DNA from: a candidate division WOR-3 bacterium
GTDB taxonomy: Bacteria; Hydrothermota; UBA3072; B12-G15
Assembly: GCA_965649055.1 (NCBI GenBank)
Contig: CBFGJG010000007.1
Location: 1-40,026 of the forward strand
Direction: 5' to 3'
DNA length: 40,026 bases
Both the position numbers and the translations under genes were made by a program. The notes beneath the pieces were generated by a model, which worked only from the letters and a program-made list of their open reading frames with translations, did no database searches and was not told the origin of the DNA. Shown here one piece after another: positions 115 through 22,962 of the stretch (within the stretch, counting starts at the first letter, position 1; each line of letters opens with the position of its first letter).

Positions 115-234
115 TATATAATATTACTATGCATAGTGAAAGGCACAATTGTGCAGGAAGGTTGTTTAGGTGGCACCGACCTTGGATGAAAAAACTTCTT
201 TTCAAGGTGCATGAAAAGAAAAATGGAGGTATTG

Positions 235-387
235 ATGAAACTCGTAGATCTCTCAATTCTTGAGGATTTAATTGAAGAACCTGTAGGTGTAAAACATGGT
301 GGTGGCGGTTGTGGGGACACCTGCAAGGGTGTTATTTGTGGTGGCAGTTGTGTTGGTGGATGGTGTGGTTACAGTACATGTGGCTAA
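235..387 (+). CDS. Cys/Gly-rich RiPP precursor peptide, 50 aa: MKLVDLSILEDLIEEPVGVKHGGGGCGDTCKGVICGGSCVGGWCGYSTCG
   Basis: Translated by hand; GGAGGT RBS at 225-230; acidic/hydrophobic leader plus six-Cys core; directly upstream of a radical SAM/SPASM gene; absent from ORF track (short). Confidence 0.9.
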   Translation: MKLVDLSILEDLIEEPVGVKHGGGGCGDTCKGVICGGSCVGGWCGYSTCG

Positions 388-393
388 AAGTCT

Positions 394-425
394 GGTAGCC
401 TCTAAAAAAGGGGCTACCTTATTGT
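394..425 (+). terminator. Hairpin / leaky terminator between precursor and maturase
   Basis: GGTAGCCTCT-AAAAA-AGGGGCTACC (10-bp stem with one G-U) followed by an imperfect T tract TTATTGT. Confidence 0.65.
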
Positions 426-446
426 ATAGTCATATAAGGGAGATAT

Positions 447-1766
447 ATGTTCCATTTAATTAAAAGGGATGATAACAAGATAATTTATTTTCCTGCATTA
501 AATAAGATTTTTAATATTACTGAAAAGGAATATGAAAAAGATTTTAAAGAATGGGAAGAAAAAGAAATAAAAGCCGAGCAGACTTTAGATTCCAATTTAT
601 TAAATACAATAAATAAATATGAACAAATTTCCAACCTTCAAAGGTTGGTAATAGGTGTTACCAATAAGTGTAATTTTCAGTGTTTATATTGTTATGGTAT
701 AAATGGAAGTTATGGAAAAAAAATTCAAACAATATCAGAAAATAAATTGTTTAGTTTATTAGATTTTTTTATTGTTAAATCTGTTGACATAAATCAGATT
801 CAATTTTTTGGAGGAGAACCACTTATTGAATTTAATCTTATAAAAAAAATTTGTAATTATTTTGAAAAAGCAAAGATGAAAAATAAAATAAAAGATATTC
901 CTATGATGACAATGGTAACAAATGGAAGCATTATTTCAGAAAAAATAATAAAATTCTTTAAAGAATATAATTTTTCAATAACAGTTAGTTTAGATGGACC
1001 CCCTGAAGTAAATGATCTAGCAAGAAAAGATAAAAACGGGGATGGTACATTCAAAAAAATTTCTGATACGATCAATTTACTAAGAGAAAACGATATCCAG
1101 TATGGTATTGAAGCAACTTATACAAAATATCATATTAAATTGGGTATTTCGGTATGGAATTTAATCCAATTTTTTTATGAAACTTTTGGGCTTACTTCAG
1201 TTCATATCCCACCTGTCTCTTCTAATAATCCAAATATTGCGTTGTTCCCAGAGTATACAAAAGAAACAATGAAAATTTATAGAGAAGCAATAAATAATTG
1301 TCTAAGAAACTGGATAAATGGAAACATAGTTTCATTTTCTTTCTTAGATAGATATCTTTATGGTCTAATAAAATTAAAGACCTCTATTACTTTTTGTCCG
1401 GCAGGATATGATACAATTGCAATATCTTGGGAAGGTAAAATTTATCCTTGTTTTATGTTTTATGGGATAGATTCTTTTGGATATAAAGAAAATATATTGG
1501 AAGAACAAAAGATAGATTTCCAAATGCCTTTGAAATCAGAATGCACTGATTGTAGTAAATGTTGGATAAGATATTTATGTTCAATTTGTATAGGTGGTGT
1601 TTATTTTGAAACAGGTTCTATTTGTAAGATTCCAGTATATTTGTGCGAATGGCAAAAGGGAATGATAGAAGAAATAATTTTTAATATAAGTAATATACAA
1701 AAAAATGTTGACATCTGGGAAAAATTTGTTAGAAATCTAAAAAAACAAAATGCTCAAAATGCATAA
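447..1766 (+). CDS. Radical SAM/SPASM peptide maturase
   Basis: CNFQCLYC (CX3CX2C), FFGGEPL, TNG, SLDG motifs; SPASM CPAG...YPC...CSKCWIRYLCSIC...C; N-terminal extension could be a leader-binding (RRE-like) element. Confidence 0.92.
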   Translation: MFHLIKRDDNKIIYFPALNKIFNITEKEYEKDFKEWEEKEIKAEQTLDSNLLNTINKYEQISNLQRLVIGVTNKCNFQCLYCYGINGSYGKKIQTISENKLFSLLDFFIVKSVDINQIQFFGGEPLIEFNLIKKICNYFEKAKMKNKIKDIPMMTMVTNGSIISEKIIKFFKEYNFSITVSLDGPPEVNDLARKDKNGDGTFKKISDTINLLRENDIQYGIEATYTKYHIKLGISVWNLIQFFYETFGLTSVHIPPVSSNNPNIALFPEYTKETMKIYREAINNCLRNWINGNIVSFSFLDRYLYGLIKLKTSITFCPAGYDTIAISWEGKIYPCFMFYGIDSFGYKENILEEQKIDFQMPLKSECTDCSKCWIRYLCSICIGGVYFETGSICKIPVYLCEWQKGMIEEIIFNISNIQKNVDIWEKFVRNLKKQNAQNA

Positions 1767-2337
1767 TAAAAGGAATTTATACCTATTTTTAATAATTTTT
1801 AATCTATTTTACTTTACATTCCTTTTTATTGAAGATAGAATAAATGTAAAGACAGAGATTGAAGAGATAGAGTCAAGGGGCTCTGAATGGGAAGTTTTTA
1901 TTAATTTTTTTAAGAGTTTATGGAGGACTATACTTGCTGTTCTTTCGAGAATTTTTATCTTCTGGTTTTGGATATTTTTTAAGATTGGATTTATATTATT
2001 TATATTTGAATTTATTGGGATATATAAGAAAGGTCAGGTTGTCTTAAAAGGTGTTATATATTCACAGACATTTGTCTTTATGTTCATATTATTTTCATTT
2101 TTCTCTATTCTAATTTTTAAAAAAGAACCTATTACCTCTTTAAACTTCATATCATCTAACGAGAATAAATTAAATAATTTTATTCTCTCTTCAATAGAGT
2201 TTTTCAAGATATGTGAATTTTTCTATCTTTTTTGGTTTATAAAAAAGCATATAAAAATTTCAGAGACAACATTAACATTGCTTTTAATCCCACTTTTTTT
2301 CATTGAAACGTTTATAAAATGGGTATATTATATTTAA
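1750..2337 (+). CDS. Multi-pass membrane protein, Yip1-like
   Basis: Hydrophobic helices; ends with SIEFFKICEFFYL, similar to the LDFFSIW segment of the 4889 gene. Confidence 0.55.
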   Translation: MLKMHNKRNLYLFLIIFNLFYFTFLFIEDRINVKTEIEEIESRGSEWEVFINFFKSLWRTILAVLSRIFIFWFWIFFKIGFILFIFEFIGIYKKGQVVLKGVIYSQTFVFMFILFSFFSILIFKKEPITSLNFISSNENKLNNFILSSIEFFKICEFFYLFWFIKKHIKISETTLTLLLIPLFFIETFIKWVYYI

Positions 2338-2338
2338 T

Positions 2339-3061
2339 ATGAGCGAAGTTATACTTGAAATTCAAGGATTATATAAAAAATATAGAAAGAGTGATTGGGC
2401 AATCAAAGATATAAATATACAGATAAAGAAAAGTGAGATAGTTGCATTTTTAGGACACAATGGTGCAGGAAAGACAACGACAATGAAATGTATTATGAAT
2501 CTTATATTCCCACAGGAAGGGTTTATCAGGATTGCAGGAATGGATAATAAAGATGAGAAAGTGAAGAATCTAATTGGTTATCTACCTGAGAATATATTTA
2601 TTCCACCATATTATAATGTTTACGAGATATTAAATCTAAGTTTAAATTTAAGGAATATTAAAGATGGTAAGGAGGGAATAAAAAAATATTTGGAATTTTT
2701 TGAATTGGGGAATTATATAGATAAAAGGATAGATAAGTTATCAAAAGGGAATAGACAGAAGGTTGCTCTAATACTTTCAATCCTTCATAATCCATTATTA
2801 TATCTTTGGGATGAGCCATCTGAAAACCTTGATCCTGTTATAAGAAGGAAGGTAATAGAATTTATTAAAGAAGAGAAAGAAAAGGGTAAATCATTCTTTA
2901 TATCAACCCACATATTAACAGAAATAGAAAGAATTGCTGAAAGGGTAATATTGATAAAGGAAGGGATAATTGTTGCAGATAAAAAAGTTGAGGAGATTTT
3001 ATCTCAAGGTGAGACACTTGAGGATTTTTATATAAAATGCTATCAGGCAAAAAAAGGGTAA
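2339..3061 (+). CDS. ABC transporter ATP-binding protein
   Basis: GHNGAGKTT, LSKGNRQK, DEP, STH motifs. Confidence 0.93.
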   Translation: MSEVILEIQGLYKKYRKSDWAIKDINIQIKKSEIVAFLGHNGAGKTTTMKCIMNLIFPQEGFIRIAGMDNKDEKVKNLIGYLPENIFIPPYYNVYEILNLSLNLRNIKDGKEGIKKYLEFFELGNYIDKRIDKLSKGNRQKVALILSILHNPLLYLWDEPSENLDPVIRRKVIEFIKEEKEKGKSFFISTHILTEIERIAERVILIKEGIIVADKKVEEILSQGETLEDFYIKCYQAKKG

Positions 3062-3837
3062 TATTTAAGGATACATTTCTTGATATATTTGAAGGGAAGA
3101 TTTCTTATCTTGTCTTTGCTTTTACATTGTTAGGCTTTATATTTACATTATCTATTGGGAAAACTGCAAGGAATTTTGCTTTGAATTCGCATATTCAATA
3201 TATAGATTTCTTTATTTTTTCTGCATTTTATTTTTTTTCATTCTTATTTAAGTCTATCATCTTTTTACTTATAGCATCCTTTCTATTATCAAAGCATTTT
3301 TATTTTAAGAAATTATCACTTATCTTCTATCCAGTAAAGAGAAAGGATTATATAATAACACTCATTTTTGCAGTTACGATTTACTCATTTATATTTTTTC
3401 TTCTATGGGACTTAATATCTTATTTTTTACAATATTATCTTTTTCATTCAAATGTGAAAAATTATTTTCTTTATTTTCTGCTCTCTGATATCTCAATTTT
3501 TTTATATTCACCATTTGTTTTATTCACAGGGTTTTATTTTTCAGAGATACCAACCGCTTTTTTATCAGTAATTATATTTTTGGGTTCTTCTTTCTCATTG
3601 CTTCTTATGCCATATTTTAATATTGGAATTCCTGAAGAAATAATGATAATCATAAATAATATTCCGAGTTTATTCAATTTTATAATATTTATTCCAATGA
3701 AATTAATGAATATTCCACAGGGTTTAATTGATTTGAAACCGAGAATATGGGATATTGCTTTTTATATACTTCTTTTTATTGTTTTTCTTATATTATCAAT
3801 AAAAAATATAAAAAAAATAGAGGATGATATACCATAG
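3037..3837 (+). CDS. ABC-2 type permease-like membrane protein
   Basis: About 6 TM segments, YPVKRKDYI motif, follows the ATPase. Confidence 0.7.
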   Translation: MLSGKKRVIFKDTFLDIFEGKISYLVFAFTLLGFIFTLSIGKTARNFALNSHIQYIDFFIFSAFYFFSFLFKSIIFLLIASFLLSKHFYFKKLSLIFYPVKRKDYIITLIFAVTIYSFIFFLLWDLISYFLQYYLFHSNVKNYFLYFLLSDISIFLYSPFVLFTGFYFSEIPTAFLSVIIFLGSSFSLLLMPYFNIGIPEEIMIIINNIPSLFNFIIFIPMKLMNIPQGLIDLKPRIWDIAFYILLFIVFLILSIKNIKKIEDDIP

Positions 3838-3839
3838 AT

Positions 3840-4502
3840 ATGATATATCTTAAATTTTTTAAGCATACAATTATTAGGAATTGTAATGATAAGAGATTTA
3901 TAATTTCAATAATTTTATGTGTTATATTTATAATTCTTAATTGGAATATTAAGAATAAGGATGTGTTCCTTTTTAATTTTAACACAACGATTTTATTACT
4001 TATTTTGATTTTTATTCATATTGATAAGATGTGGGGATTTATAAATCTCCCGTATAATTTGGAATTTCTTCTTTCTTTTCCATTTAAGGAAAATTATCTC
4101 ATTATAGTCTATCATATATCAAATGTTCTTATGTTTTTTATATATATTTTATTCATTCAAATTTTTGGTTTTTTAAAAGGGGTTACTAATGAAAATGTTA
4201 TAATAAATAATCTTATTTTTGTTACAATATTCCAGAATATATTACTTTTATTTTCATTATTAAAATATCTTCATTTTCCTGTATTTGGATTTATTTTATC
4301 ATTCTATATAGGAGGATTTTTAAGAAATGGATTTAGTGAAAAAGGATATTTAAATTATCTATCTATAATTTTGCCACCATTTAATAGTGTATTAATGTAT
4401 GGATTAAAGATATACGATTTTATAAGTGTTCTACTTTATATGACAATACCATTTTTAATTTTAGTATCTAAAAGAAACTTCTCTGAGATAAAAAAGATTT
4501 AA
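3840..4502 (+). CDS. Second permease-like membrane protein
   Basis: Multi-TM, FLLSFPFK motif, coupled to the previous gene. Confidence 0.6.
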   Translation: MIYLKFFKHTIIRNCNDKRFIISIILCVIFIILNWNIKNKDVFLFNFNTTILLLILIFIHIDKMWGFINLPYNLEFLLSFPFKENYLIIVYHISNVLMFFIYILFIQIFGFLKGVTNENVIINNLIFVTIFQNILLLFSLLKYLHFPVFGFILSFYIGGFLRNGFSEKGYLNYLSIILPPFNSVLMYGLKIYDFISVLLYMTIPFLILVSKRNFSEIKKI

Positions 4503-4503
4503 A

Positions 4504-4887
4504 ATGGGCAACATATTAGATGATAAAAACCCCCTATTATTTTTGAAAAATTCATACCACCATATATAGAAGAATTTGAAGATTGCAGAGATTGCCCGGT
4601 TAAATACTTTTGTGCTGGAGGAGGTTGTATAGGAAGGAATTATGCATTCAATAATTCATTGACAAAGCCATCACCATATTGTAAGATTTACTTACTATAT
4701 GGCAATAGCAGAATTTTTTGAGTTGTTGAGCAAAAAAACGGAAGAGATTATCATTGGAACTATTAAAGAGTTAAAAAATAAGGGTAAATCAATTATTGTG
4801 GTTACACATAGGGAAGCACCACTTAAGATAGCAGATGAGGTATACGAACTTGAAGATGGGAAATTGAATAAAATAGAAGGAGGTTAA
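4504..4887 (+). pseudogene. Chimeric remnant: C-terminus of a second radical SAM/SPASM enzyme joined to the C-terminus of an ABC ATPase
   Basis: MGNILDD (4504), then shifted frame DCRDCPVKYFCAGGGC...SPYC (4581-4682), then KELKNKGKSIIVVTHR...IADEVYELEDGK (ABC H-loop only, no Walker A/B). Confidence 0.8.
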
Positions 4888-4888
4888 A

Positions 4889-5516
4889 ATGGAAAACCTA
4901 AAAGTAATATTGAATGTTTTTTCAAATCCACCAAAGGTATATGAAAAGATAAAAAATAATAAAGTGTCAGTTCTTATTCCTATAATTGTCCTTATCATTT
5001 TCTTTTTATTGAAAGATTTTTTCATTACTTATGATAATGCCGATGTTAAAACAAAACTTAATATAGGGATAATGGGAGAGAAATCTTCATTTGTTATTTC
5101 ACCTTATTTGTTTTTAATAAAACCAATAATTGTAATCCCTTTAATAATTTTAATAAAATCCATATTCTTTTTTGCATTTAATATCTTTTCAAAAGAGAGA
5201 CTGAATTTTAAGAAATATTTTCTTATTGTTTCCTATTCATCCCAGGTAAGAATAATAGAAGTCCTAATATTGCTTTTATATTATCTCTTTTTTAAAGAAT
5301 CAATTAACTTAAGCCCTTCTCTTATTTTCTATACTTCGGGATTTTTTTATTCACTTCTTTCAAAACTTGATTTTTTTTTCAATATGGGAGATGATTTTAA
5401 TTGTTTATGGGATTAATGTAAGCACAAATATAAATAGAAGAAAGGGATGGATTATCGGGATTATAATATGGATTATTTATATCTTAATCTCTGCATCCAT
5501 TACTAAAAATGCATGA
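4889..5516 (+). pseudogene. Yip1-family membrane protein (YknW-like), frameshifted in a T9 run
   Basis: NVFSNPPKVYEKI start; removing one T at 5371-5379 gives LDFFSIWEMILIVYGI...TKNA ending at TGA 5514-5516, overlapping the next ATG. Confidence 0.75.
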
Positions 5517-6713
5517 ACAGATTTGAGATTTTTTCACTATCTTTATATAATATAAAACAACATACCCTGAGAACATTCCTCACAATAACTGGTATAATTA
5601 TAAGCACATTCATTGTTACATTTTTTTTGATAATCTCAGATACATTTAAATATACTTTTAAAATTGCTGAAAAAATGATTGGTGGAGATGTTATAACAGT
5701 TGATAAGTATGACTGGGAAGATGAAAGACATAATATAGGAGAATTATTGAAAAAGAGAAGAAATTTTTCTTATACTCTTATTAGAGAATTGAAAGAACAG
5801 AATTTTGTATTGTTATCATCATCTGTTTATGAAAATAATCTTGATGTGGAATTTAAAGAAAAGAAAATGGAGAATATAAAAATATATGGGGTTGAACCAG
5901 CATTTTTTGTTATGCATAATTACAAAATAAATAATGGGAGAAATTTCAATTATATAGACCTTAAAGAAGATAAAAGGGTATGTGTTATTGGATATGATAT
6001 TATGAAAGAAATTGGGGAAGAAACACTTGAAAAATTTATTCTTATTGGAGGTGTTTCATTTATGGTTATAGGGGTTTTAAAAAAGATTGGGAATTATCTT
6101 GAAATGAAACCTGACGAAGTTATAATAATCCCCATAACCACTTATGAGAGATATTTCTTGGAAGAAGGGGACTATTCAACTATTGAAATATTAGCCGGGA
6201 AAAAAGATGAAAGAAGTATTAATCTGATTGATAGTATTGTTGGGGAATTTAGAAAAGGATTAGGAGAAGAAGGAGGATATGCGATTAATACACTTGAAAA
6301 GAGATTTGGGTTTTTCAAAGGGGTCAGTACAAATATCTTCAAATTACTACTAATTATTTCCCTTATATCCCTACTTGTGGGTTGTATAGGAATTGCAAAT
6401 ATAATGATAGCTTCATCTTCTGAAAGGATAAATGAGATTGGGATTTTAAAGGCAATAGGTGGATCAGATATTGAAATTTTTGTTATTTTTATTTTTGAAC
6501 CTATTTTATTAGGGCTTTTAGGGGCTTCAATAGGTGTCCCTATAGCCACAGTTCTTGCTACACTTTTATTATTGTCTTCAAAAACAACTGGTTTTATTTT
6601 TAGATTTCCATTTTTCAATAATCTTAACAATAATTGCAACAGCATTATCAGGTCTTTACTCTGCTTATAAAGCATCAAAAATACAACCAATTGAAGCATT
6701 GAGGTATCAATGA
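5513..6713 (+). pseudogene. MacB/FtsX-family ABC permease, frameshifted near the 3' end
   Basis: LRTFLTITGIII, GCIGIANIM, ERINEIGILKAIG; the canonical tail SGLYSAYKASKIQPIEALRYQ is in the +1 frame from about 6600 and ends at TGA 6711-6713. Confidence 0.8.
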
Positions 6714-7801
6714 TATTTTTTATATTTTATTTCCAGGATACTATTGATTTAAGATATTTTATTGAAAAGGCTTTAGAAACTAATAAATTTATGCTCGAAG
6801 AGATTGAATATAGTGTATCAGGTGTTCAATCTGAATATCCGTTCTTTTATCTTTTGCCTTTGCCATATTTTCAGATTTCTTCTGATTTGGAAGGTGAAAA
6901 TATTTATATATTATCATTACCAATTATTGAACCATCTTTTATTTTTTTCTTTCCACTTAATAGAGTAAACAGGGATTTGAAGGGAAAAAGTAAAGAATAT
7001 GCAAAATTCTATTTGAAAAAAGAATTCACTTTTAAATTTTATGAATTTCTTTATTACTATGAATTGTCAGCATTAGAGGATTCTATCTTAAAAATATACG
7101 AAGAGATTTTAAAGATGAAAGAAGAAGGTTATAAATCTGGCAAAATAAAGTATGAAGATTATCTTGAAATACTGGAAGTTAATTTAAAAGAAAAATATAA
7201 TTATATAGTTGCAATAAATGAATTAAAAAGAACGAAGTCTATTATAAATGAAATATTGAAAGATTCGATAAATTTAATTCCACTTGATTCATTTACTTTA
7301 ATAACACTACAATATGATTCGGTTATTGGTGATATTATAATAGATATAAATAAATCAAAAATAGATAAAATTAATGTATATAAATGGAATTCAATTTTTT
7401 CTTTCCTTCCTTCACTTCAATTCCAGATGAAGTCAGATTTTAAAACATTAGAGAGAGAGTTTAGATTATCAGCATCAATTAATATATCCCAGATTATTGC
7501 AAATCTAAATTATTTTAACATACAGAAAAAGATTCTTGAGATAGAAAGGAAACAGAATGATTACGAAAAGAAAATTTTATCAGAGAAGATTAATTCAATA
7601 TTTAATAAATATAATGAATATAAAAAGAGGAATTATGAAATTGGAATAATCTATGAAAATCTCTATAAAAAATGTGAGAATGATTACTATAATGGTATTT
7701 TGTCTTATGAAAATCTATTAAATACAAGATTGAAACTTTTAGGAATAAAAAAGGAAATATTGGAATCAGAATACAGTATAATAAAGGAGTGTTTAAGATG
7801 A
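6710..7801 (+). CDS. Divergent TolC-like outer membrane channel
   Basis: Located between MacB permease and adaptor; repeated GYKSGKIKYEDYL / YYNGILSYENLL helical motifs typical of TolC. Confidence 0.65.
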   Translation: MIFFIFYFQDTIDLRYFIEKALETNKFMLEEIEYSVSGVQSEYPFFYLLPLPYFQISSDLEGENIYILSLPIIEPSFIFFFPLNRVNRDLKGKSKEYAKFYLKKEFTFKFYEFLYYYELSALEDSILKIYEEILKMKEEGYKSGKIKYEDYLEILEVNLKEKYNYIVAINELKRTKSIINEILKDSINLIPLDSFTLITLQYDSVIGDIIIDINKSKIDKINVYKWNSIFSFLPSLQFQMKSDFKTLEREFRLSASINISQIIANLNYFNIQKKILEIERKQNDYEKKILSEKINSIFNKYNEYKKRNYEIGIIYENLYKKCENDYYNGILSYENLLNTRLKLLGIKKEILESEYSIIKECLR

Positions 7802-8799
7802 AAAGATTTTTAACTTTATTCATTATCTTATTTGTACTCACAACTTTTATTGTTATAAATATTGGAAAAAGGAAAGATAATAAAGATAAAAAAGAGATTA
7901 AATATGATACAGCTAAATATAGAGCGGTAGAGATTTCTTATGAATGTGAAGGTGAGATAGAAAATTACAGGGTTTACGAGATTTTTTCACCAGAAAAATC
8001 GTTCGTAAAAAAAATCTTAAGATATCCTGGAGAGGAAGTAAAAAAAGGTGATACAATAGTAATACTATCAAATAATGAACTGGAATACAGATATAGAAAA
8101 ATCAATTATGAACTTGATGAATTAAAAACGAAATTAAAAGAGATGTCTTTTCCAAATTTATCAGAAAGTCATTACAGAAAAGAGATAAAAGATTTAGAAA
8201 ATGAAATAAGAAAGAAAGAGATTGAATTTGAATACATAAAAAGGGAGTATGATAATCTTAATATAGTCGCACCTTTTAATTGTTATGTGTTAAAGGTAAA
8301 TTCAAAAGAAGGGGAGATTATAAATGGCATTTTTTTGAAATTATCCAATCTTGATACCCTTTCATTGAGGGTGAAATTATTGTTAGAAGAAATATCTAAA
8401 TTAAAAACTGGTCAAAAATTAAAAATAGTATTTTATTCACATAGCAATTATGAAGTAGAAGGAATATTGTATTATCTGAACTATGAAGGGGAAAAGATTA
8501 AAGAGAACTATGAGTACTTTGCAGGTATAAAATTTAAAAGGATTGGGAATATACTTCCAGGTTCAAAGGCAAATGTGAAGATATTCTATGATGTCTCTGA
8601 TAAATTATGTATTCCTAATGATGCTATAATAGAAAAAAATGGAAGATACTATGTTTTATTAAAGAATGGTGAGAAAAGAGAAATTAAAACAGGAATTTCT
8701 GGTTCACAATACACTGAGATTATCTCAGGACTTAATGAAGGTGATACAATAATATCCGGCCCTTTTGATTTTTTACAGAAGAAATTGTATGAGAGATAA
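7798..8799 (+). CDS. Efflux periplasmic adaptor (MacA/HlyD family)
   Basis: AAGGAG RBS and ATGA coupling favour ATG 7798; GEEVKKGD, IVAPFN, IPNDAI, EIISGLNEGD motifs. Confidence 0.88.
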   Translation: MKRFLTLFIILFVLTTFIVINIGKRKDNKDKKEIKYDTAKYRAVEISYECEGEIENYRVYEIFSPEKSFVKKILRYPGEEVKKGDTIVILSNNELEYRYRKINYELDELKTKLKEMSFPNLSESHYRKEIKDLENEIRKKEIEFEYIKREYDNLNIVAPFNCYVLKVNSKEGEIINGIFLKLSNLDTLSLRVKLLLEEISKLKTGQKLKIVFYSHSNYEVEGILYYLNYEGEKIKENYEYFAGIKFKRIGNILPGSKANVKIFYDVSDKLCIPNDAIIEKNGRYYVLLKNGEKREIKTGISGSQYTEIISGLNEGDTIISGPFDFLQKKLYER

Positions 8800-9463
8800 T
8801 ATAATAGAGGGATTTAAGATAAACAAAACATATTATACAACAAAGATTCCTTTAAAGGTTTTGAGTGATATTGATATAAAAATAAAAAGAGGCAAATTTG
8901 TTTCAGTTTTAGGCCATTCTGGTTCTGGAAAAAGCACACTTCTACACATCCTTGCACTACTTGACAGGTTTGATAGCGGGGAATATTTTTTAGATAAAGT
9001 TTATATTAATTCATTGAATGATAAAGAGAGGACAAAATTAAGGAGAGAAAAGATAGGGATTGTTTTCCAGAGTTTCTATCTTTTTCAATACTTCAATGTA
9101 TATAAAAATGTTGAACTCCCTTTGATTATAAGAGGATATTCATATGAGAAAAGAAAAATAATGGTTGAAAATGTTCTAAAAGAAATAGGCTTAGAAGATA
9201 GAATCTATCATATGCCGAATGAACTTTCAGGTGGAGAACAACAAAGGGTTGCAATAGCAAGGGCAATTGTTACAGAGCCTGAAATACTATTTGCAGATGA
9301 ACCTACTGGGAATCTTGATTCAAAAACAGGTATGAAGATATTTGAAATCCTTGATAAATTGAATAAAGAAAAAGGAATCACAATATTTATGGTTACTCAT
9401 AATTTAGAACTTGCAAAGATGACGGATGAGATAATTTATTTAAAGGACGGAAAAATTGTTTAA
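8789..9463 (+). CDS. MacB/LolD-type ABC ATP-binding protein
   Basis: GHSGSGKST, LSGGEQQRVAIARA, ADEPTGNLD, VTH; start at ATG 8789 preferred. Confidence 0.93.
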   Translation: MRDNIIEGFKINKTYYTTKIPLKVLSDIDIKIKRGKFVSVLGHSGSGKSTLLHILALLDRFDSGEYFLDKVYINSLNDKERTKLRREKIGIVFQSFYLFQYFNVYKNVELPLIIRGYSYEKRKIMVENVLKEIGLEDRIYHMPNELSGGEQQRVAIARAIVTEPEILFADEPTGNLDSKTGMKIFEILDKLNKEKGITIFMVTHNLELAKMTDEIIYLKDGKIV

Positions 9464-12155: not shown

Positions 12156-12545
12156 ATGAACAGATTTAATGATTGGCTCGAAGAGGCAGAACTGGATTTT
12201 GAAAAATGTAAGATTGATATTCAGTATAAATTTTACAATTGGGCTTGTTTTACAGCACAGCAGTCAGCAGAAAAAGCAGTAAAAGCATTATGTATGAAGT
12301 TAGGATTTGAATCTTGGGGGCATTCAGTTACAAATATGCTTAAAATCATCAAAGAAAAAATAGAAATTCCTTCAGAGATTATTGAATATGCACAGTTTTT
12401 AGATGCCTTCTATATTCCAACAAGATATCCTAATGGATTTAGTATGGGAAAGCCTTCTGATTATTATAACGAGAAAATAGCAAAAGAGGCATTAAATGCT
12501 TGTGAAAAAATCATTAAATTCTGTAAGTTTAATTGCAATAAATAG
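12156..12545 (+). CDS. HEPN domain protein
   Basis: YNWACFTAQQSAEKAVKA, WGHS, YIPTRYPN motifs. Confidence 0.9.
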   Translation: MNRFNDWLEEAELDFEKCKIDIQYKFYNWACFTAQQSAEKAVKALCMKLGFESWGHSVTNMLKIIKEKIEIPSEIIEYAQFLDAFYIPTRYPNGFSMGKPSDYYNEKIAKEALNACEKIIKFCKFNCNK

Positions 12546-12855
12546 GGATGCACTTCTTTCATCTTTAAAAGAAATATCAGTAAAGTTAAAGTGTGAAAAT
12601 CCCAATATAAAAGAAATAAGGCTTTTTGGTTCAATAGCAAAAGGTGAACAGACTGGAAAAAGCGATGTTGATATTCTTATCATTGTTTCATCTTCCGATA
12701 CGCCAATTGTTTTAAGAAGTGTAAAATACAGAAAATATTTTGATATAGAAATACCTGTTGACATAATAGTCTATACAGAGAATGAATTAAATATTATGTT
12801 AAAACAAGGGAATAAATTTATAAAAGAGATTTTGAAAGAAAGTATTCAGTTATAA
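12496..12855 (+). CDS. Minimal nucleotidyltransferase (MNT)
   Basis: LFGSIAKG...SDVDILII, PVDIIVYT. Confidence 0.9.
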   Translation: MLVKKSLNSVSLIAINRDALLSSLKEISVKLKCENPNIKEIRLFGSIAKGEQTGKSDVDILIIVSSSDTPIVLRSVKYRKYFDIEIPVDIIVYTENELNIMLKQGNKFIKEILKESIQL

Positions 12856-12858
12856 TTA

Positions 12859-13326
12859 TTATATATAATGAACCTTGTATTCAAGATTTTTTAAATCTAT
12901 TGTAACAAATGTTCTTAGATCTGAAAGCCAGCCTGAAAGTTCACCTGGATTTATAATCCTTTCTCCCAAATCAAGTTTGTGTGTATGACCATATAGAATA
13001 AGGTCATAATCACCTTTTATGAAATTTTCAAGCTGTTTTGGTTCATGCATAACAAGAATCTTACGACCTTCTATTGTGAAACATTCAGGGCCTTTTGTTA
13101 TAACAAATCCCTTTTTCTCAAATCTCTCTTTTAACAAAATCTTATCACCATCATTATTCCCAAAGACTGCAAACATCTTCTCACATGTAAAATGCTCCAC
13201 AACAAATGGTGATACAATATCACCACAATGAATAACTACTTTTATACCCATTTCATCAATCATCTTGAATGCCTTTTTCACTATAGGTAGATTATCGTGT
13301 GTATCTGATATTACACCTATCACCAT
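12859..13326 (-). CDS. YfcE/MJ0936-family metallophosphoesterase
   Basis: SDTHD, HCGD, GNND, GHTH, INPG motifs. Confidence 0.92.
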   Translation of the reverse strand: MVIGVISDTHDNLPIVKKAFKMIDEMGIKVVIHCGDIVSPFVVEHFTCEKMFAVFGNNDGDKILLKERFEKKGFVITKGPECFTIEGRKILVMHEPKQLENFIKGDYDLILYGHTHKLDLGERIINPGELSGWLSDLRTFVTIDLKNLEYKVHYI

Positions 13327-14090
13327 AAAATTTCTCCATTCTCTATCCTTAATAACTTCCCGTTTATCTTTGGGATAAATGGAATATAACCTTCTTTAAA
13401 TAGTTCTTGAATACTTATAGGTGCTCTTTTCTTTTCTCTTTCAAATTTCTTCATAGTATATTTTAAAACTTCCTTTATACCATCAATCGCGATCTCCCTT
13501 AAATATTCATTATTTGCCCTTTGATATACATCTACCCAGTAATAAAGAAGTTCTTTTACACCTTTTTCTTTTATCAAAGACATATACGCAAATTTTCTAC
13601 ATCTGTCAGAACCTTTCTCAAATTTACTCCCGATAAAGAAACTTCTATATGCTTTATCAAAATCATAAGATATATAATACATAAATCCTTTATAAAAATG
13701 AAGAACCCATTCATCAGGCAGACTTTGAAGCCCTTTATCAATTAATTTTACGGCAAGTTCTAAATTCTTTAACTGATAGTTTATAAAGAAAGCTCCAAAA
13801 ATATAAGCATTCAAGAATCTTTCATCGAGTGATGTTACTATATCATAAATATGGAAAAGATATTCAAATTTTCCCTGTGTTCTCTTTTCTTCACCATAAT
13901 ATACAGCACCCCTAATCCACAGTAAATCAGCGATTAAATTGTTATAACCAGATACAAAAAATCTTATATTACTTCCTTTCGGGAAGTAAAGGAGTTCTTC
14001 TGTGTGTATTTCTTTTTTATATCTTTCAAAAATTAACTGAGAAGAAACTATCATGAGAATCAAAAGAAAGATAATTAAAGACTTTTTCAT
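13320..14090 (-). CDS. Membrane-anchored TPR-like ABC accessory protein
   Basis: N-terminal TM, ADLLWIR...TSLDERF..AYIFGA; third gene of the ABC unit. Confidence 0.65.
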   Translation of the reverse strand: MKKSLIIFLLILMIVSSQLIFERYKKEIHTEELLYFPKGSNIRFFVSGYNNLIADLLWIRGAVYYGEEKRTQGKFEYLFHIYDIVTSLDERFLNAYIFGAFFINYQLKNLELAVKLIDKGLQSLPDEWVLHFYKGFMYYISYDFDKAYRSFFIGSKFEKGSDRCRKFAYMSLIKEKGVKELLYYWVDVYQRANNEYLREIAIDGIKEVLKYTMKKFEREKKRAPISIQELFKEGYIPFIPKINGKLLRIENGEILW

Positions 14091-14854
14091 CAGTAGAACT
14101 CCTTCTTTTCAAGTATTAAAGAACTTAAAAATATCATAAGAATTATATAAAGTATGCTGTAAGAAATAGAGAATATAAAGATTTCCTTCTCAAAATTGAT
14201 TGAATAAACAATATATGATTTTATATTTGTTAATGAAAAATTAGGGAAGACATAATAAACAATGTTTGCAAATATTTTAAAGATTAGATTCGGTATCTTC
14301 AGTGAAAATTCTTTTATATAATGTGAAGTATTTGCTATAAAATAAATAAGCAAAGATATAAGTCCTGAGGTAATTGGTGCCATAAAAGAGGAAAGGAACA
14401 GGACAACGCTTTCAATAATAAGCAGTTCAAATAAAAGGAAATAATACCAGAAGAATATCCTGCCAAAGAAAAATCCGAATATAATCTTGATAAAAATAAA
14501 GAAGTAGATGAACAGTATTGTCTGGACTATAAATGTTATCAATGAAAGACCTAAAAGTTTTCCAAGGATTAGTTCAAATGGTTTAACTGGTTTACTGAGG
14601 ATCGTATGTATTGTCTTTTTTTCAATCTCATCATAGATAATCCTTGTTCCGATAAATATTATCTGGAAAAGTAGTAATATCTCTATGAATGAAACTCCAA
14701 AATCAACAATAACCCTTATTGATTGACCAACAGAAATAGGAATGAATATAATTGAAGAAGTTAAGATGATTATACCAAAAATAGATACCGAAATTAATGT
14801 TTTATCCCTTATCCCTTCTCTGAATGTGCTTAATGCGATTGCATTAATCTTCAT
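14090..14854 (-). CDS. ABC-2 permease (PilI-like)
   Basis: AIALSTFREGIRDK, EIEKKTIHTILSKPV, GKLLG motifs. Confidence 0.85.
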   Translation of the reverse strand: MKINAIALSTFREGIRDKTLISVSIFGIIILTSSIIFIPISVGQSIRVIVDFGVSFIEILLLFQIIFIGTRIIYDEIEKKTIHTILSKPVKPFELILGKLLGLSLITFIVQTILFIYFFIFIKIIFGFFFGRIFFWYYFLLFELLIIESVVLFLSSFMAPITSGLISLLIYFIANTSHYIKEFSLKIPNLIFKIFANIVYYVFPNFSLTNIKSYIVYSINFEKEIFIFSISYSILYIILMIFLSSLILEKKEFY

Positions 14855-15749
14855 TTTTCAAAACCTCCATAAAGTATTCTTCAAGCCTCTTCCTTTTTGG
14901 TTCAACAGATATAACATTTCCTTTATTCTTTAAGACAAAATTCAGGAATTCCTGAAGCTTTTCTTCGTTTTCTATCTTCACAATCTTATATTCGTCATAT
15001 TCTGTGACTTCGCCGAATTTTTCTATTTTTTCCTTCGTGATCCCTGATAGCATTACATCAAAGCTTATATTTTTATATTCAAGTATCTCTGAAATTTTCC
15101 CAATCTTCAAAACCCTTCCTTTGAAAAGTATACCAACAGTATCACATATTTCTTCAACATCAGGTAGTATATGTGTAGAAAAGATTATAGTTTTACCTTT
15201 CTTTTTAAGTTCAATTATCCATTCCTTCATTTCCTTTCTCCACAATGGGTCAAGACCCGTCATAGGCTCATCAAGTATTATAAAATCAGGGTCATTTATG
15301 ATAGCCTGTGCAAATCCAATCCTTTGTAACATTCCTTTAGAATATGTTCCTATCCTTCTTTCCATTGCATCTTTTAGCCCTATCTTATCGAATAATTTAA
15401 TGATTTCATCCCTTGATAATCTTTTTTTAAAGAAAGAAGAGTAAAAATCAATTGTTTCATAACCTGTAAGATGCCTGTAGAAATACGGATTTTCGGGCAA
15501 AAAACCTATTTTTTCTCTTGTATCTTTTTTAATTTTTTCCCCAAAGATCTTTATTTCACCTTCGTCTATCTTTATAAGACTGAGGATTGACTTAAAAATA
15601 GTTGTTTTACCTGCACCATTTGGGCCAAGTAATCCAAAGATTTCACCTTCTTTAACATCAAAACTTACACCATCAAGTGCCTTTATCTTTTTTCTTAAAA
15701 AAGGTGAGCGATATGTCTTTTTTAGTTCTTTTACTTCAAGGACTTTCAT
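14844..15749 (-). CDS. ABC ATP-binding protein (PilH-like)
   Basis: GPNGAGKTT, GFLPENPYFY, YSKGMLQRIG, LDEPMTGLDP. Confidence 0.92.
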   Translation of the reverse strand: MKVLEVKELKKTYRSPFLRKKIKALDGVSFDVKEGEIFGLLGPNGAGKTTIFKSILSLIKIDEGEIKIFGEKIKKDTREKIGFLPENPYFYRHLTGYETIDFYSSFFKKRLSRDEIIKLFDKIGLKDAMERRIGTYSKGMLQRIGFAQAIINDPDFIILDEPMTGLDPLWRKEMKEWIIELKKKGKTIIFSTHILPDVEEICDTVGILFKGRVLKIGKISEILEYKNISFDVMLSGITKEKIEKFGEVTEYDEYKIVKIENEEKLQEFLNFVLKNKGNVISVEPKRKRLEEYFMEVLKNED

Positions 15750-16840
15750 TCCCAGACTCCTTCTATTTTTGTTTTACATTTAGGACATTTACCATCTTTT
15801 ATTTTATTCTGCTGGACATCGAAACCCCATCTTTTTATTAAAAGTTCTTTACAATCAGGACAATAAGTATTTTCACCCGGATGACCCCTTGGAACATTTC
15901 CCATATAAACAAATTTCATACCTTCCTTCAATGCTATCTCTCTTGCTTTTTCAACTGTTGAAACAGGTGTAGGAGGTAGATTGGTTAGTTTATATGTTGG
16001 AAAGAAGCAGGAAAAATGAATAGGTGTATCTAAACCGAGATTATTCTTTATCCATAAAATCATATTTTTAATCTCTTCCATATTATCGTTCAATGTTGGT
16101 ATAACAAGGTTTGTAATTTCAAGGTGAACCTTGTTTTCCTTCAATATTTTCAATGTTCTTAAAACAGGTTCAAGCGAACCTGAAGAAATCTCTTTATAAT
16201 TTTTCTCATTAAAAAATTTAAGGTCAACATTTGCAGCATCAAGATAGTTTATAATCTCTTTTAGGGGCTCTTCTTCAATGAATCCATTTGAATGGAACAT
16301 ATTTTTGAAATTATTCTTCCTTGCAACCTTTGCTGTCTCAAGCATATACTCAAAAAAAACAACGGGTTCAGTATAAGTGTATGCTATTGTAGAAATATTA
16401 TATTTTTTTCTGTAGAGAATAGCATTTTTTATAAGTTCATCAGGAGATAATTTATAATTTTCAGTTTCATCGGGACCAACCTGTGAGATTGAATAGTTCT
16501 GACAATATTTACATCTGAAATTACATCCAGCGGTAGCAATTGAAAAAGCAGTTGTTCCGGGAAAGAAATGATACAATGGTTTTTTCTCTATTGGGTCTAT
16601 ATGGACAGCACAGGGATTTCCAAATACAAGAGAAAATAGTTCACCATTTATGTTTCTTCTTACCCTGCAAAAACCTGTTTCATTATTTTTAAGGACACAA
16701 TGATGCGGGCAATTGAGACAACGAACCTTTTTACCATCAAGTTTTTTATAGTATCTTGCAGGATAAAGGTTTTCAGTTTTTTTTTCAGCAATTAAAAAAG
16801 GTAAGCTTGCAAGTGATATCAAAAAATCCCTTCTTTTCAT
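15746..16840 (-). CDS. amrS: AmmeMemoRadiSam system radical SAM enzyme
   Basis: DPIEKKPLYHFFPG, GCNFRCKYCQN, AYTYTEP, ENTYCPDC; N-terminal RRDFL. Confidence 0.92.
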   Translation of the reverse strand: MKRRDFLISLASLPFLIAEKKTENLYPARYYKKLDGKKVRCLNCPHHCVLKNNETGFCRVRRNINGELFSLVFGNPCAVHIDPIEKKPLYHFFPGTTAFSIATAGCNFRCKYCQNYSISQVGPDETENYKLSPDELIKNAILYRKKYNISTIAYTYTEPVVFFEYMLETAKVARKNNFKNMFHSNGFIEEEPLKEIINYLDAANVDLKFFNEKNYKEISSGSLEPVLRTLKILKENKVHLEITNLVIPTLNDNMEEIKNMILWIKNNLGLDTPIHFSCFFPTYKLTNLPPTPVSTVEKAREIALKEGMKFVYMGNVPRGHPGENTYCPDCKELLIKRWGFDVQQNKIKDGKCPKCKTKIEGVWE

Positions 16841-18907: not shown

Positions 18908-21121
18908 ATGTTTTTCATAATGATGGCTCTTTTCCCCTATGATGAAGTTATTATGGAAATAGGGGTTAAGGGTGTAAAAAATATAGATACGATACTGGTA
19001 ACCACTGTCTCGGGTTTGAAGATAGGTGATATTCTTACAAAAGAAAATGGTGAAAAATGTATAAAAAACCTTTATTCAACAGAACTTTTCAGAAATATTA
19101 AACTTGAAGCAGTAAGAAGTTCTTATGGAGGAATTAAGGTTACTATAGTTGTAGAAGAATTCCCAAAAGTCATAGAGACAGATATTTCAGGAAATAAAAA
19201 GATAAAGAAAAAGGATTTAGAAAAACTTATAGATTTAACACTTCCTAAACTGGTCTCTGACAGAAAATTATTTGAAATTCAAAATAAGATAAAAGATTTT
19301 TATAAAGAAAAAGGGTTCAGAGGAACCACAGTTAAACTACAGAGAGAGACACTGGATGAAGGAGAAAAAATAACATTCGTTATAGAAGAGGGTAAAAAAT
19401 TGAGACTTAAAGAAGTAAAGTTTGTAGGAAATGAGAACATATCTGATAAAAAACTTGGTGGAAGGTTAAAAACAAAGGGAAGAAAACACTGGTGGACATT
19501 CTGGATTAAGGGTGAAATAGTTGATACCCTAATAGAAAAAGACTTCCAGATAATTGAAGACTACTATAAAGAAAATGGTTATCTTGATGCTAAAACAGAT
19601 TCATTTAAAATTGAAGAAGTGGATAATAATGCAATTATAAAGTTTTTTATCTATGAAGGAAAAAAATACTATCTTGGGAATATAACATTCACAGGAAATG
19701 TGTTCCTTGAAAAGCCAGAAAGATTTTTTAAATTAAAATCAGGAAATGTATTTAATAATAAGAAATTCGAAAGTTCTTTACAGGAACTTTACACATATTA
19801 CACCGATAATGGTTATCTCTATGTTAATATAAATCCTTTATTTAACTTTAGAAATGATACTGTTGATGTTGATATTAAAATAAATGAAAATAATAAGGTT
19901 TATGTGAAACTTATTGATATTATAGGTAATATATCAACTTATGATAAAGTTATAAGAAGATACCTTACAATTTATCCGGGTGATGTATTCTCAAGGGAAA
20001 AAATAATCACTTCGCAACAAAATCTTTTCAGGCTTGGTTATTTTGAAAATCTGTTATTCAACTTAAAAAGAGAATCTTCGCTTGATTCTGTTTCACTTAT
20101 ATTTGAAGTAAAGGAAAAACAGACAGGTCAGGTTTCAGCAGGAATGGGATACTCAAAAGATGTCGGTATTACAGGAAATGTATCAATAAATATACCAAAT
20201 TTTCTTGGAAAAGGTCAGACTGTAAATTTTACATACGAAAGAACCGTTGCAAGCCAGACAGGAACAAGACCAATACAATATATTACACTTGGATTTCAGG
20301 AACCTTGGCTTTTTGATACACCAACAAGTATTGGATTTTCTTTATTCTCAACATACAGACTGTGGGAATATTTTACTGAATACAGAATGGGTTTCCAGAT
20401 TGACCTTGGAAGAATTATTGGTCCAAGAAAAGATATCACCATTTCAGGAAATTACAGATTGTCAAGGAACAAGATTGATTGTGATACAACAAAAACACCT
20501 GACTATATAGATGAACAATACGGTATAAAATGGGAATCATCTATTTCAACTAATTTTCTTAAAGATTCAAGGGATAATTATTTTTATCCCAAAAAAGGAA
20601 CATATATCTCTTTATCACCGAAACTTTCTGGAACAATTCTTGGAGGAGATATAAATTACTACAGGGTGAATTTTGAAATAAAAAGATTCTTGGAAATTTA
20701 TAAAGAATTTGTTATTATGAACAGGATATTCTTTGGGCATTTGCAGGGGCTTGAAGGTTCAAAAACACCAATAATAGAAAGATACCAGCTTGGTGGTTCT
20801 GGATTTTATGGTATAAGAGGCTATTCTGACAACTCAATCAGACTTTCAAGGGGTTATGGTGGTAATGAAGCAATTATAATGAATATAGAGCTTAGAAGAA
20901 ATATAACAAATATGATATATTTATTGGGATTTTTTGACGCGGGAAATATATTTGAAAATATTAATAAGTTTGATTTGTCAGACCTTTATTCAGGTGCAGG
21001 TGTTGGTTTCAGGATTGAGATACCAATGATGGGTATATTCGGTTTAGATTTTGGATATGGATTTGATAAATCTAAAGGAGGAAAATGGGAAACTCACTTC
21101 CAGTTAGGTCAATCTTTCTAA
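18908..21121 (+). CDS. bamA: Outer membrane protein assembly factor BamA
   Basis: POTRA repeats (YKENGYLDA, YTDNGYLY), VKEKQTG, NFLGKGQ, IRGY, GVGFR, C-terminal F. Confidence 0.95.
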   Translation: MFFIMMALFPYDEVIMEIGVKGVKNIDTILVTTVSGLKIGDILTKENGEKCIKNLYSTELFRNIKLEAVRSSYGGIKVTIVVEEFPKVIETDISGNKKIKKKDLEKLIDLTLPKLVSDRKLFEIQNKIKDFYKEKGFRGTTVKLQRETLDEGEKITFVIEEGKKLRLKEVKFVGNENISDKKLGGRLKTKGRKHWWTFWIKGEIVDTLIEKDFQIIEDYYKENGYLDAKTDSFKIEEVDNNAIIKFFIYEGKKYYLGNITFTGNVFLEKPERFFKLKSGNVFNNKKFESSLQELYTYYTDNGYLYVNINPLFNFRNDTVDVDIKINENNKVYVKLIDIIGNISTYDKVIRRYLTIYPGDVFSREKIITSQQNLFRLGYFENLLFNLKRESSLDSVSLIFEVKEKQTGQVSAGMGYSKDVGITGNVSINIPNFLGKGQTVNFTYERTVASQTGTRPIQYITLGFQEPWLFDTPTSIGFSLFSTYRLWEYFTEYRMGFQIDLGRIIGPRKDITISGNYRLSRNKIDCDTTKTPDYIDEQYGIKWESSISTNFLKDSRDNYFYPKKGTYISLSPKLSGTILGGDINYYRVNFEIKRFLEIYKEFVIMNRIFFGHLQGLEGSKTPIIERYQLGGSGFYGIRGYSDNSIRLSRGYGGNEAIIMNIELRRNITNMIYLLGFFDAGNIFENINKFDLSDLYSGAGVGFRIEIPMMGIFGLDFGYGFDKSKGGKWETHFQLGQSF

Positions 21122-22050
21122 TAATATTACTATTTTCCTGCACAAAAACAGGAAGTATTTTTGAAAAAGATACAGTATATAGAGAAACATTCAGTGTCGA
21201 CAGCACATATTCTTATTTTGTTGAGGCAAATCATAGTTCAAGTCTCTACCTTTATTGTGGTAAAAAAGAACTTTTTCAGATGAGAAGCCTGATTAGATTT
21301 GAAACACCTGATACTACTGATTCTATATATTTATTCCTTATTGGTGATAAACTAAATGATTCTATTTTCTTTTATACACTGAAAGACTCTTTCAATGAAG
21401 ACAGTATTTCGTTCGACTTAAGCAGTAATCTAAAGAATTCTCTTTTTTACAAAGGCTTTTATAACACAGATACTGTGATAGTGAAAATATACCCACCTTA
21501 TGATAATATAAAAAATGGATTAATCATAGAAACCGATTCCGTTTATAAGTTTTCTTCTAAAGAAAATTCATTGTATTCTTTCATTGTTCTTTTTGAAAAA
21601 ACGAGAAAGGATACCTTAAAATTCATTAAAGATACTTACGTATGCACGCATCCCTTAATAGGTGATACACTTGATACCTTAATGGTTGCATCCGGAATTT
21701 CAGGAAGAATCAATTTCTTTATAAATAAAGATTCCCTGAAACTTGATTCGCTTCTTTATTCAAGATTTGACCTTGGTCTTTCAACAAACGCAACCTGCTC
21801 TCTGATAGTAAACTTACAGTTGAGGGAAAAAGTCTTTAAGACAATCGGTGGAGCATATGTGAAACCTGCAACCAATGATACATTAAGTTTTATCGCACTA
21901 ATAAATAGTATACCTGATTTAATCTCTTTTTCAGATACGATACAGTATTACAAGTTCACATTGAAAATGAATAATGAAGATTTTAATCCCAGATTTGTTA
22001 ATGTTGATTCGTTGAAGATATTTATTATGTTTGTGGAGGAGAAGGAATGA
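21085..22050 (+). CDS. Putative lipoprotein of unknown function
   Basis: LLFSC lipobox; start codon uncertain. Confidence 0.65.
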   Translation: MGNSLPVRSIFLIILLFSCTKTGSIFEKDTVYRETFSVDSTYSYFVEANHSSSLYLYCGKKELFQMRSLIRFETPDTTDSIYLFLIGDKLNDSIFFYTLKDSFNEDSISFDLSSNLKNSLFYKGFYNTDTVIVKIYPPYDNIKNGLIIETDSVYKFSSKENSLYSFIVLFEKTRKDTLKFIKDTYVCTHPLIGDTLDTLMVASGISGRINFFINKDSLKLDSLLYSRFDLGLSTNATCSLIVNLQLREKVFKTIGGAYVKPATNDTLSFIALINSIPDLISFSDTIQYYKFTLKMNNEDFNPRFVNVDSLKIFIMFVEEKE

Positions 22051-22946: not shown

Positions 22947-22962
22947 AAAAACAGGAGGAATT

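Follow-up and report, generated by a model that had tools for sequence, protein, structure and literature searches.

A conserved six-cysteine peptide and its radical SAM/SPASM maturase form a probable thioether RiPP cassette in a candidate division WOR-3 bacterium

The opening 40,026 bases of contig C7 (CBFGJG010000007.1) in the assembly of a candidate division WOR-3 bacterium (2.08 Mb in 85 contigs), hereafter the window, carry a small gene for a 50-residue peptide with six cysteines, followed on the same strand by a gene for a radical S-adenosylmethionine (SAM)/SPASM enzyme. Judged by sequence, the small open reading frame (ORF) encodes a genuine precursor that is conserved, and the pair is of the radical SAM/SPASM-modified, Cys-rich kind of peptide that is ribosomally synthesized and modified post-translationally (RiPP), failing every curated family tested. 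We consider it probable that the two genes head a cassette for a thioether-cross-linked RiPP, which is the most likely of the readings weighed below; the chemistry and the pattern of rings are inferred. The precursor–maturase pair is well supported and easy to test, consisting of a 50-aa peptide and one enzyme.

Translation from the ATG at position 235 to the TAA at 385–387 gives MKLVDLSILEDLIEEPVGVKHGGGGCGDTCKGVICGGSCVGGWCGYSTCG. An earlier reading made from the letters alone (the sequence-only reading) had proposed a 50-aa, six-Cys ORF with a strong ribosome-binding site, and its details were borne out: a Shine–Dalgarno GGAGG precedes the start (Table 1), the Cys residues stand at 26, 30, 35, 39, 44 and 49 (spacing 4-5-4-5-5), and the maturase ATG at 447 lies 59 nt past the precursor stop. 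An in-frame ATG at 211, which would extend the peptide to 58 aa, was rejected as the start because it has no Shine–Dalgarno spacing and the orthologues begin at the position equivalent to 235. When all 202 ORFs of 30–120 aa in the six frames of the whole window were examined, the precursor was the only one to hold six Cys in any 24-residue span. Its core contains 12 Gly and 6 Cys per 29 residues, a composition contrary to that of a genome with 30.6% GC. The peptide had no Pfam matches and matched no NCBIfam family at E values up to 0.1. The window's own peptide was not found in a collection of 5.8 billion protein clusters, which fits the earlier suggestion that gene calling had overlooked it.

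No maturase orthologue was found among 61 genomes (60 relatives and G000), in which the top identity was 28%. A search of 272 genomes of the phylum identified orthologues in G159 (40% identity) and G154 (39%), and both loci (L176 and L177) have a small ORF at the equivalent upstream position. The L176 precursor is MIELDFKGLINLISPGNPSPNAGFGCGDNCNGVICGGTCPGGFCGYSQCPVT and the L177 precursor is MIELNFEKLMNLLTADNSPTPLAGFGCGDDCSGVVCGGTCNGGWCGYSQCPTT; orthologous precursors are therefore present in 2 of the 271 other genomes of the phylum, or in 3 of 272 when the window is included. A profile of the three precursors, searched against the 5.8 billion protein clusters at lengths of 27–93 aa, matched three proteins in all: the L176 peptide, the L177 peptide and P0123 (MEKLEFGELGDLLSSASLLNNNHAGLGCGDTCNGVICGGSCLGGWCGYSMCPA). 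The family is thus rare, with four known peptides. Their alignment has 22 invariant columns (M1, L9, L12, G23, G25, C26, G27, D28, C30, G32, V33, C35, G36, G37, C39, G41, G42, C44, G45, Y46, S47 and C49), which fall mostly in the core, and the leader diverges. All four share the core signature GxGCGDxCxGVxCGGxCxGGxCGYSxC. Two finer points of the sequence-only reading fared less well against this alignment. What it had called a Gly4 linker is AGFG or AGLG in the relatives, with only G23 and G25 invariant there, and the 9-residue periodicity that it described is regular in the first two units, CGDxCxGVx and CGGxCxGGx, with a variant third (CGYSxC).

The DNA of the three loci tells the same story. 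The three sequences are 65–72% identical across the 27 codons of the core, with 11–13 synonymous versus 5–7 non-synonymous differences. The other two reading frames over the core are full of stops, and GGAGG precedes the precursor ATG at each of the three loci for which there is DNA. These mostly synonymous changes, closed alternative frames and the retained GGAGG indicate that the precursor is a gene under purifying selection. At all three loci a short gene, variable in its leader and conserved in its core, adjoins that of a modifying enzyme, and the two are kept together in the same order. Alternatively, the small ORF might be a chance reading frame and the radical SAM enzyme might act on another substrate, as could be argued from its being uncalled in the protein collection and from its lack of a Pfam or NCBIfam match. 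This alternative is extremely improbable. It is at odds with four conserved members, an excess of synonymous changes, a retained Shine–Dalgarno sequence and position next to an orthologous enzyme, two closed frames and a Cys density seen in 1 of 202 small ORFs, and as far as evidence of this type reaches it is already refuted.

The adjoining gene encodes an enzyme that matched the radical SAM family PF04055 with 61.9 bits (gathering score, 29.5). In an alignment with 13 relatives, the radical SAM motif CX3CX2C (C75/C79/C82) and the seven C-terminal SPASM cysteines (C317, C335, C369, C372, C378, C381 and C400), a motif that serves two auxiliary 4Fe-4S clusters, were invariant, and the latter align with the SPASM region of CteB. 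CteB (5wgg) was also the nearest solved protein by sequence (E = 1e-31) and, in a Foldseek search with an AlphaFold model of the maturase (mean predicted local distance difference test (pLDDT) score, 85.9), the nearest fold (E = 8.6e-23; template modelling (TM) score, 0.74), followed by anSME, ChlB, TigE and SuiB. The four top NCBIfam models were those of PapB (NF047865; 173.7 bits over residues 65–391, cut-off 340), the nif11-peptide maturase (151.3 bits, cut-off 518.7), QhpD (TIGR03906; 147 bits, cut-off 453) and the SCIFF maturase (TIGR03974; 136.8 bits, cut-off 425), three of which (PapB, QhpD and SCIFF maturase) describe thioether formers. Lower scores were obtained for CcpM (TIGR04068; 111.6 bits, cut-off 500) and CefB (NF038107; 69.6 bits, cut-off 600). 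The sequence-only reading had named a SPASM radical SAM neighbour, had placed it among thioether-forming enzymes and had not recognised the sequence as SCIFF, freyrasin or subtilosin. The motifs and the PF04055 match bear out the first of these claims and the NCBIfam and PDB matches the second; the third also stands, as neither partner reaches any curated NCBIfam family.

We predicted the complex of precursor and maturase in three runs with three controls, using our own alignments. The complex scored 0.81, 0.77 and 0.80 (median 0.80), and the top score of the three controls was 0.00; among solved complexes 116 of 157 reach the score mark applied, and among mismatched pairs 2 of 215 do. The runs shared at least 41% of contacts. 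Confident contacts joined peptide residues 1–6 and 8–16 to enzyme residues 12–13, 20–25, 28–36, 301–309 and 414–435, and the tightest pairs placed peptide residues 2–4 on enzyme residues 20–23, strand on strand. This part of the enzyme is small: the model begins with strands at 3–7, 10–15 and 20–24 and a long helix at 26–58, that is, three strands and one helix where a full winged helix is not formed, and this N-terminal extension is shorter than in most aligned relatives. The prediction supports binding of leader residues 1–16 to an N-terminal β-strand of the maturase. A related leader complex, that of CteB with CteA, has already been solved, and the docking score may therefore partly reflect likeness to it.

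Pattern scans of genome and metagenome contigs missed the true orthologues, which the phylum search supplied, and returned 159 loci with maturase relatives at 19–39% identity. In the protein collection the nearest maturase relatives were P0002 (44%) and P0003 (38%; annotated 'candidate division WOR-3 bacterium', and identical with the L176 enzyme), with all others at 37% or less. We read the neighbourhoods of the 13 non-self loci that scored at least 150 bits in tblastn. Gly/Cys-rich small ORFs lay beside the enzyme at eight of them (L018, L096, L019, L023, L022, L020, L024 and L027), Bacteroidota-type GG-leader peptides at two (L021 and L098), and no recognisable precursor was present at the other three (L017, L097 and L101). 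Thus similar small Cys peptides do lie beside maturase homologues, as the sequence-only reading would lead one to expect. L018 (Ruminococcus) has six tandem precursor copies, such as MEFKMNEVKVNDIEILEETEAPAFGIICGGGCWGIGCAF, L096 (a metagenome) has three precursor peptides, and L019 (Anaerocolumna) and L023 (Enterococcus ureilyticus) have two each, such as MNEIKINEVELTSISTEDSKSDYPQARGGFVCGGMCTNGMLCGGVCGNGVGGNCGGYCK. None of 11 peptides or 6 enzymes of this Gly/Cys-rich type reached an NCBIfam cut-off.

In a maximum-likelihood tree of 49 enzymes, with Shimodaira–Hasegawa-like approximate likelihood ratio (SH-aLRT) support, the window enzyme grouped with P0002 and the L176 and L177 enzymes (support 100), and this clade was sister (96) to a clade of 16 rows (100). 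Of the six Bacillota enzymes in the tree that have Gly/Cys-rich precursors, five fall in the latter (L018, L019, L022, L023 and L096); the sixth, L020, stands apart on a long branch. The window cassette resembles those of the Bacillota clade (L022 is from Hathewaya) in an alternating hydrophobic/acidic leader strand, with an ILEE..P-like motif in some, in cores built of C-G-x-x-C units and in one or more ABC transporter genes downstream. It differs in that enzyme identity is only 30–33%, core length and Cys number vary in the Bacillota peptides (3 to about 10 Cys), which are commonly present as multiple tandem copies, and the CGDxC..CGYSxC signature is missing there. The Bacillota systems are uncharacterised and belong to no curated family.

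Three characterised systems are also close. Freyrasin has a core of six Cys-x3-Asp units. Its PapB/PapA pair likewise combines a radical SAM/SPASM enzyme with an adjoining short precursor that has six Cys and a periodic core, but the window enzyme scores about half of the 340-bit PapB cut-off and the window core has a single Asp and abounds in Gly (12 of 29 residues). The SCIFF family ('six cysteines in forty-five') is typical of Bacillota. Its CteB/CteA pair (thermocellin; 5WGG) provides the nearest solved structure by sequence and fold and shares a six-Cys precursor of about 50 aa, and the leader of the window pair is likewise predicted to lie on the N-terminal domain; the window enzyme, however, is below the SCIFF cut-off, the window peptide has no NCBIfam match, and the N-terminal domain is cut down to three strands and one long helix. 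For StsB/StsA (NF045574), PMC10288494 describes an MftC-like StsB and three Cys-to-Gly sactionines in StsA, a precedent for Cys-to-Gly α-carbon thioethers in a short core; the StsB model, in contrast, is not among the top 25 NCBIfam models for the window enzyme.

We take a Cys-to-carbon thioether to be the most likely modification because three of the four top models are of thioether formers, Cys is common to all the precursors that we read in the clade and the SPASM domain is full. Other SPASM chemistry, such as an aromatic C–C cyclophane formed at W/F43 or at Y46, epimerisation or conversion of Cys to formylglycine, with the cysteines serving for disulfides or metal, is quite unlikely. W/F43 and Y46 are indeed conserved, anSME, TigE, ChlB and SuiB are significant fold matches, and the enzyme falls outside every curated isofunctional family, all of which would suit such chemistry. 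However, the cyclophane and C–C models score far below the thioether models (YhhB 78, AmcB 69, GrrM 61 and XyeB 60 bits), Cys is the sole side-chain-bearing residue common to the wider-clade precursors that we read, and some sister precursors, such as the first L019 peptide, lack aromatic residues in their Cys-rich core.

Within the thioether assignment, the carbon acceptor is a separate matter, and attachment at the α-carbon or at a β/γ-carbon appears about equally likely. The sactionine variant, in which Cys sulfur is joined to the α-carbon of Gly or another residue to give a sactipeptide, is credible without being favoured overall. It would suit the nine invariant Gly in the 27-residue core, the Bacillota sister cores, in which Gly, Ala and aliphatic residues are nearly the only acceptors (for example, AFGIICGGGCWGIGCAF of L018), stretches made only of G, A and C in the L019 and L023 cores, and the StsA precedent. 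Against it, the top models include the non-α enzymes PapB, QhpD and SCIFF maturase, the sactisynthase models rank lower (GggB, NF050038, 104.2 bits with a cut-off of 650; RumMC, NF035951, 80.8 bits with a cut-off of 720; StsB outside the top 25), and Asp28 is invariant with T, N, D and T at position 29. CteB, NxxcB and PapB take residues of these types as acceptors.

Several observations weigh against the thioether assignment or the evidence on which it draws. The Pfam SPASM model PF13186, which many relatives of the maturase carry, reached 14.2 bits in the window enzyme against a gathering score of 21.5, and over residues 317–338 only. The enzyme matched 69 NCBIfam families, each below its curated cut-off. 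Its fold matches include TigE, SuiB and ChlB, which form C–C links, and anSME, which makes formylglycine by oxidising Cys. Overall similarity does not separate S–Cα from S–Cβ/γ enzymes; according to PMC10288494, some sactisynthases are nearer to ranthisynthases than to other sactisynthases. In the predicted complex the peptide has a pLDDT of 44–48, values low enough to make its own fold uncertain, and the placement is confident for the leader only. The tree is a quick version with several long branches flagged. Finally, Pfam and NCBIfam searches found no leader peptidase among the cassette genes, and the contig starts 234 nt 5′ of the precursor, so that further genes of the cluster could be missing.

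With these points in mind, the thioether reading would proceed as follows. The 50-aa precursor would be translated from its strong ribosome-binding site, and its leader (residues about 1–16), with the amphipathic strand LVDLSILEDLIEE, is predicted to add as a β-strand to the maturase's small N-terminal domain, a putative counterpart of a RiPP recognition element. The cluster on C75/C79/C82 would cleave SAM to a 5′-deoxyadenosyl radical, which would abstract hydrogen from one of the carbons of the Gly-rich core; the carbon radical would then be captured by a Cys thiolate held at the SPASM auxiliary cluster. Each thioether would lower the mass by 2 Da, and up to six of them, one per invariant Cys, may give a compact poly-macrocyclic peptide. 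Leader removal is presumed, in a cassette without a protease. Export of the product or protection of the producer would fall to the ABC-2-type ATPase with its two membrane partners, together with the Yip1-like protein (Table 1).

We found no description of the window family in the literature that we searched. A search with 18 motifs of the family and the sister clade found no related precursor among the 3,421 sacti- and ranthipeptide precursors in the spreadsheet supplement of PMC10288494; the look-alikes in that list were three Gly/Cys-core singletons labelled 'uncharacterized' or 'hypervariable'. It is a tentative idea, and one that we rather doubt, that the WOR-3 'CGD' family belongs with its Bacillota sister clade in a single undescribed group of RiPPs with a ladder of thioether rings, mostly to Gly α-carbons. 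If this were true, one SPASM enzyme would make up to six short rings, about one per 4–5 residues, in a group that spans Bacillota and an uncultured hot-spring diderm phylum. To our knowledge, no characterised sacti- or ranthipeptide has such ring density and topology, and we found no cultured producers of such peptides in the host phylum in print. The pair is tied to a larger uncurated Bacillota clade, with members in gut Ruminococcus and in Enterococcus, whose products are likewise uncharacterised, and the chemistry of one member would be assignable to the whole clade. The family could seed a new curated model and help gene callers to recover missed small genes. Radical SAM/SPASM thioether RiPPs are already well mapped, and the pair opens no long-standing question.

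The precursor and maturase genes are the first two of six (Table 1). We compared the window ORFs by blastp with 16-kb stretches (L182 and L183) of two orthologous contigs and found the six genes in identical order in all three. The cassette ATPase resembles ABC-2, DrrA, PSM-export and lantibiotic-protection ATPases in Pfam and NCBIfam, and the transporter genes suggest export or self-protection. The 195-aa, 266-aa and 220-aa membrane proteins matched no Pfam or NCBIfam family; the Yip1-like label of the first is a lead only, from an ESM Atlas feature score of 0.91 to clusters that partly carry Yip1. In L182 and L183 the cassette is followed by a 569–615 aa exporter with ABC_membrane and ABC_tran domains. 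A 62-aa ORF of the window (4699–4887) was considered as a remnant of that exporter and rejected, as tblastn gave no match there. The gene set that follows in the window is possibly an envelope-spanning exporter, but the orthologous loci do not share it in synteny, and any tie to the cassette is therefore conjectural.

Table 1. Features of the window, with positions counted from its first base
Feature	Position	Strand	Remarks
Shine–Dalgarno GGAGG of the precursor gene	225–229	+	5 nt 5′ of ATG 235
Precursor peptide gene, cassette gene 1	235–387	+	50 aa; leader about 1–22; Gly/Cys-rich core about 23–50; six invariant Cys; 46–51% identity to orthologues overall
Stem–loop between precursor and maturase	394–418	+	GC-rich, 10 bp, T-rich tail; terminator-like or attenuating hairpin
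Radical SAM/SPASM peptide maturase, cassette gene 2	447–1766	+	439 aa; PF04055, Cys motifs, CteB likeness; short, predicted leader-binding N-terminal domain; blastp 38% identity to L182/L183
195-aa polytopic membrane protein (Yip1-like lead), cassette gene 3	1750–2337	+	37–38% identity to L182/L183
ATP-binding cassette (ABC) transporter ATPase, cassette gene 4	2339–3061	+	54% identity to L182/L183
266-aa membrane protein, putative permease subunit, cassette gene 5	3037–3837	+	28–33% identity, syntenic
220-aa membrane protein, putative second permease subunit, cassette gene 6	3840–4502	+	28–33% identity, syntenic
YknW-like, MacB/FtsX permease, weak OEP match, HlyD-like and ABC ATPase gene set	4889–9463	+	Possible envelope-spanning exporter
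BamA (Omp85 with four POTRA), two unknown ORFs, OmpH/Skp-like, LpxD, LptD-like	18908–26821	+	Outer-membrane biogenesis block

Five terminator-like sites were seen, against 0.7 expected, and the hairpin between precursor and maturase is among them. Its folding free energy (dG) is −18.5 kcal/mol (z = −3.45), and hairpins at the same place in L176 (−30.6 kcal/mol, z = −6.57) and L177 (−35.9 kcal/mol, z = −6.65) are also strong and differ in sequence. A hairpin 3′ of the structural gene is the usual route to more peptide transcript than enzyme transcript, as in lantibiotic operons. Here, it would probably keep precursor messenger RNA above the read-through transcript of the enzyme and transporter genes. 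Sigma-70-like promoter sites numbered 17 against 15.8 expected, and we claim no promoter; an Rfam scan of the three loci gave two sub-threshold chance matches only. L176 (about 1040–1200) and L177 (about 1060–1230) share a conserved, GC-rich element of about 130 nt just 5′ of both precursors. It matches nothing in Rfam, and the 234 upstream bases of the window contain no clear counterpart. The element could act as a regulatory RNA or be some repeat, and its conservation is weak evidence because the two genomes belong to one genus. The cassette region has 25–29% GC, against 31–35% further along the window, a difference too weak to argue for horizontal transfer, given that AT richness is in any case usual in membrane-protein genes. 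The metatranscriptome of the same study gave only spurious pieces of 18–31 nt against the cassette, which are evidence neither way, and a hot springs metagenome DNA run (X1) contained, at low depth, short contigs that match the cassette exactly, and may come from the sample that yielded the genome.

Cys-rich precursors beside PapB-like radical SAM enzymes recur, with two more pairs in the same genome. Contig C56 carries PapB-like radical SAM/SPASM genes at L185 437–1858 and L186 1489–2934 (154–156 bits with the PapB model), which lie far from the window enzyme in the tree, and small Cys-rich ORFs 5′ of them (L185 212–385, 57 aa; L186 1258–1410, 50 aa, MINILNLLEGKIKPVCGCGCPCWCGGVINDYANGYMDGACDAGLASNEAA). 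Acidic-tailed Cys peptides resembling these lie beside relatives in L008 and L181. Other WOR-3 genomes, from family f38, have different short Cys peptides (MNKMIRLNGDSKQTVGAGAGGCGVIACGGSCSGIVW at L178 3039–3149, −; MNKMKLSLNLLDFSAIEDPMKVLSGEQEKCCNGYWSCGGTVSTQ at L179 944–1078, +) adjoining enzymes 30–32% identical to that of the window. Bacteroidota GG-leader peptides ending in ...SGHAGGLVCWC also stand beside enzyme relatives (L021 3794–3910 and L099 2152–2337), and these pairs are followed by a large ORF of the size of a TonB-dependent receptor, in a separate and apparently conserved system.

Elsewhere in the window, the presence of BamA, OmpH, LpxD and LptD indicates that the host is diderm, in agreement with the lineage that the sequence-only reading had guessed. 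The NCBI names of the orthologues P0003 and P0122, and kinship with G159 at the level of phylum, make WOR-3 its probable phylum. Overlapping genes at 12156–12855 (+) encode a HEPN-domain protein (129 aa) and a nucleotidyltransferase (119 aa), an arrangement like HEPN/MNT toxin–antitoxin systems. A second radical SAM gene (15746–16840, −) encodes an AmmeMemoRadiSam enzyme (TIGR04337; 352.9 bits, cut-off 220) and is unrelated to the maturase; it forms part of a stretch (13320–16840, −) that continues, in the same orientation, with an ABC ATPase gene and two ORFs that match no family. At 26818–28713 (−), a 630-aa fusion joins a SAM methyltransferase (residues about 57–250) to the C-terminal, ATP-grasp part of a D-Ala-D-Ala ligase, an unusual combination.

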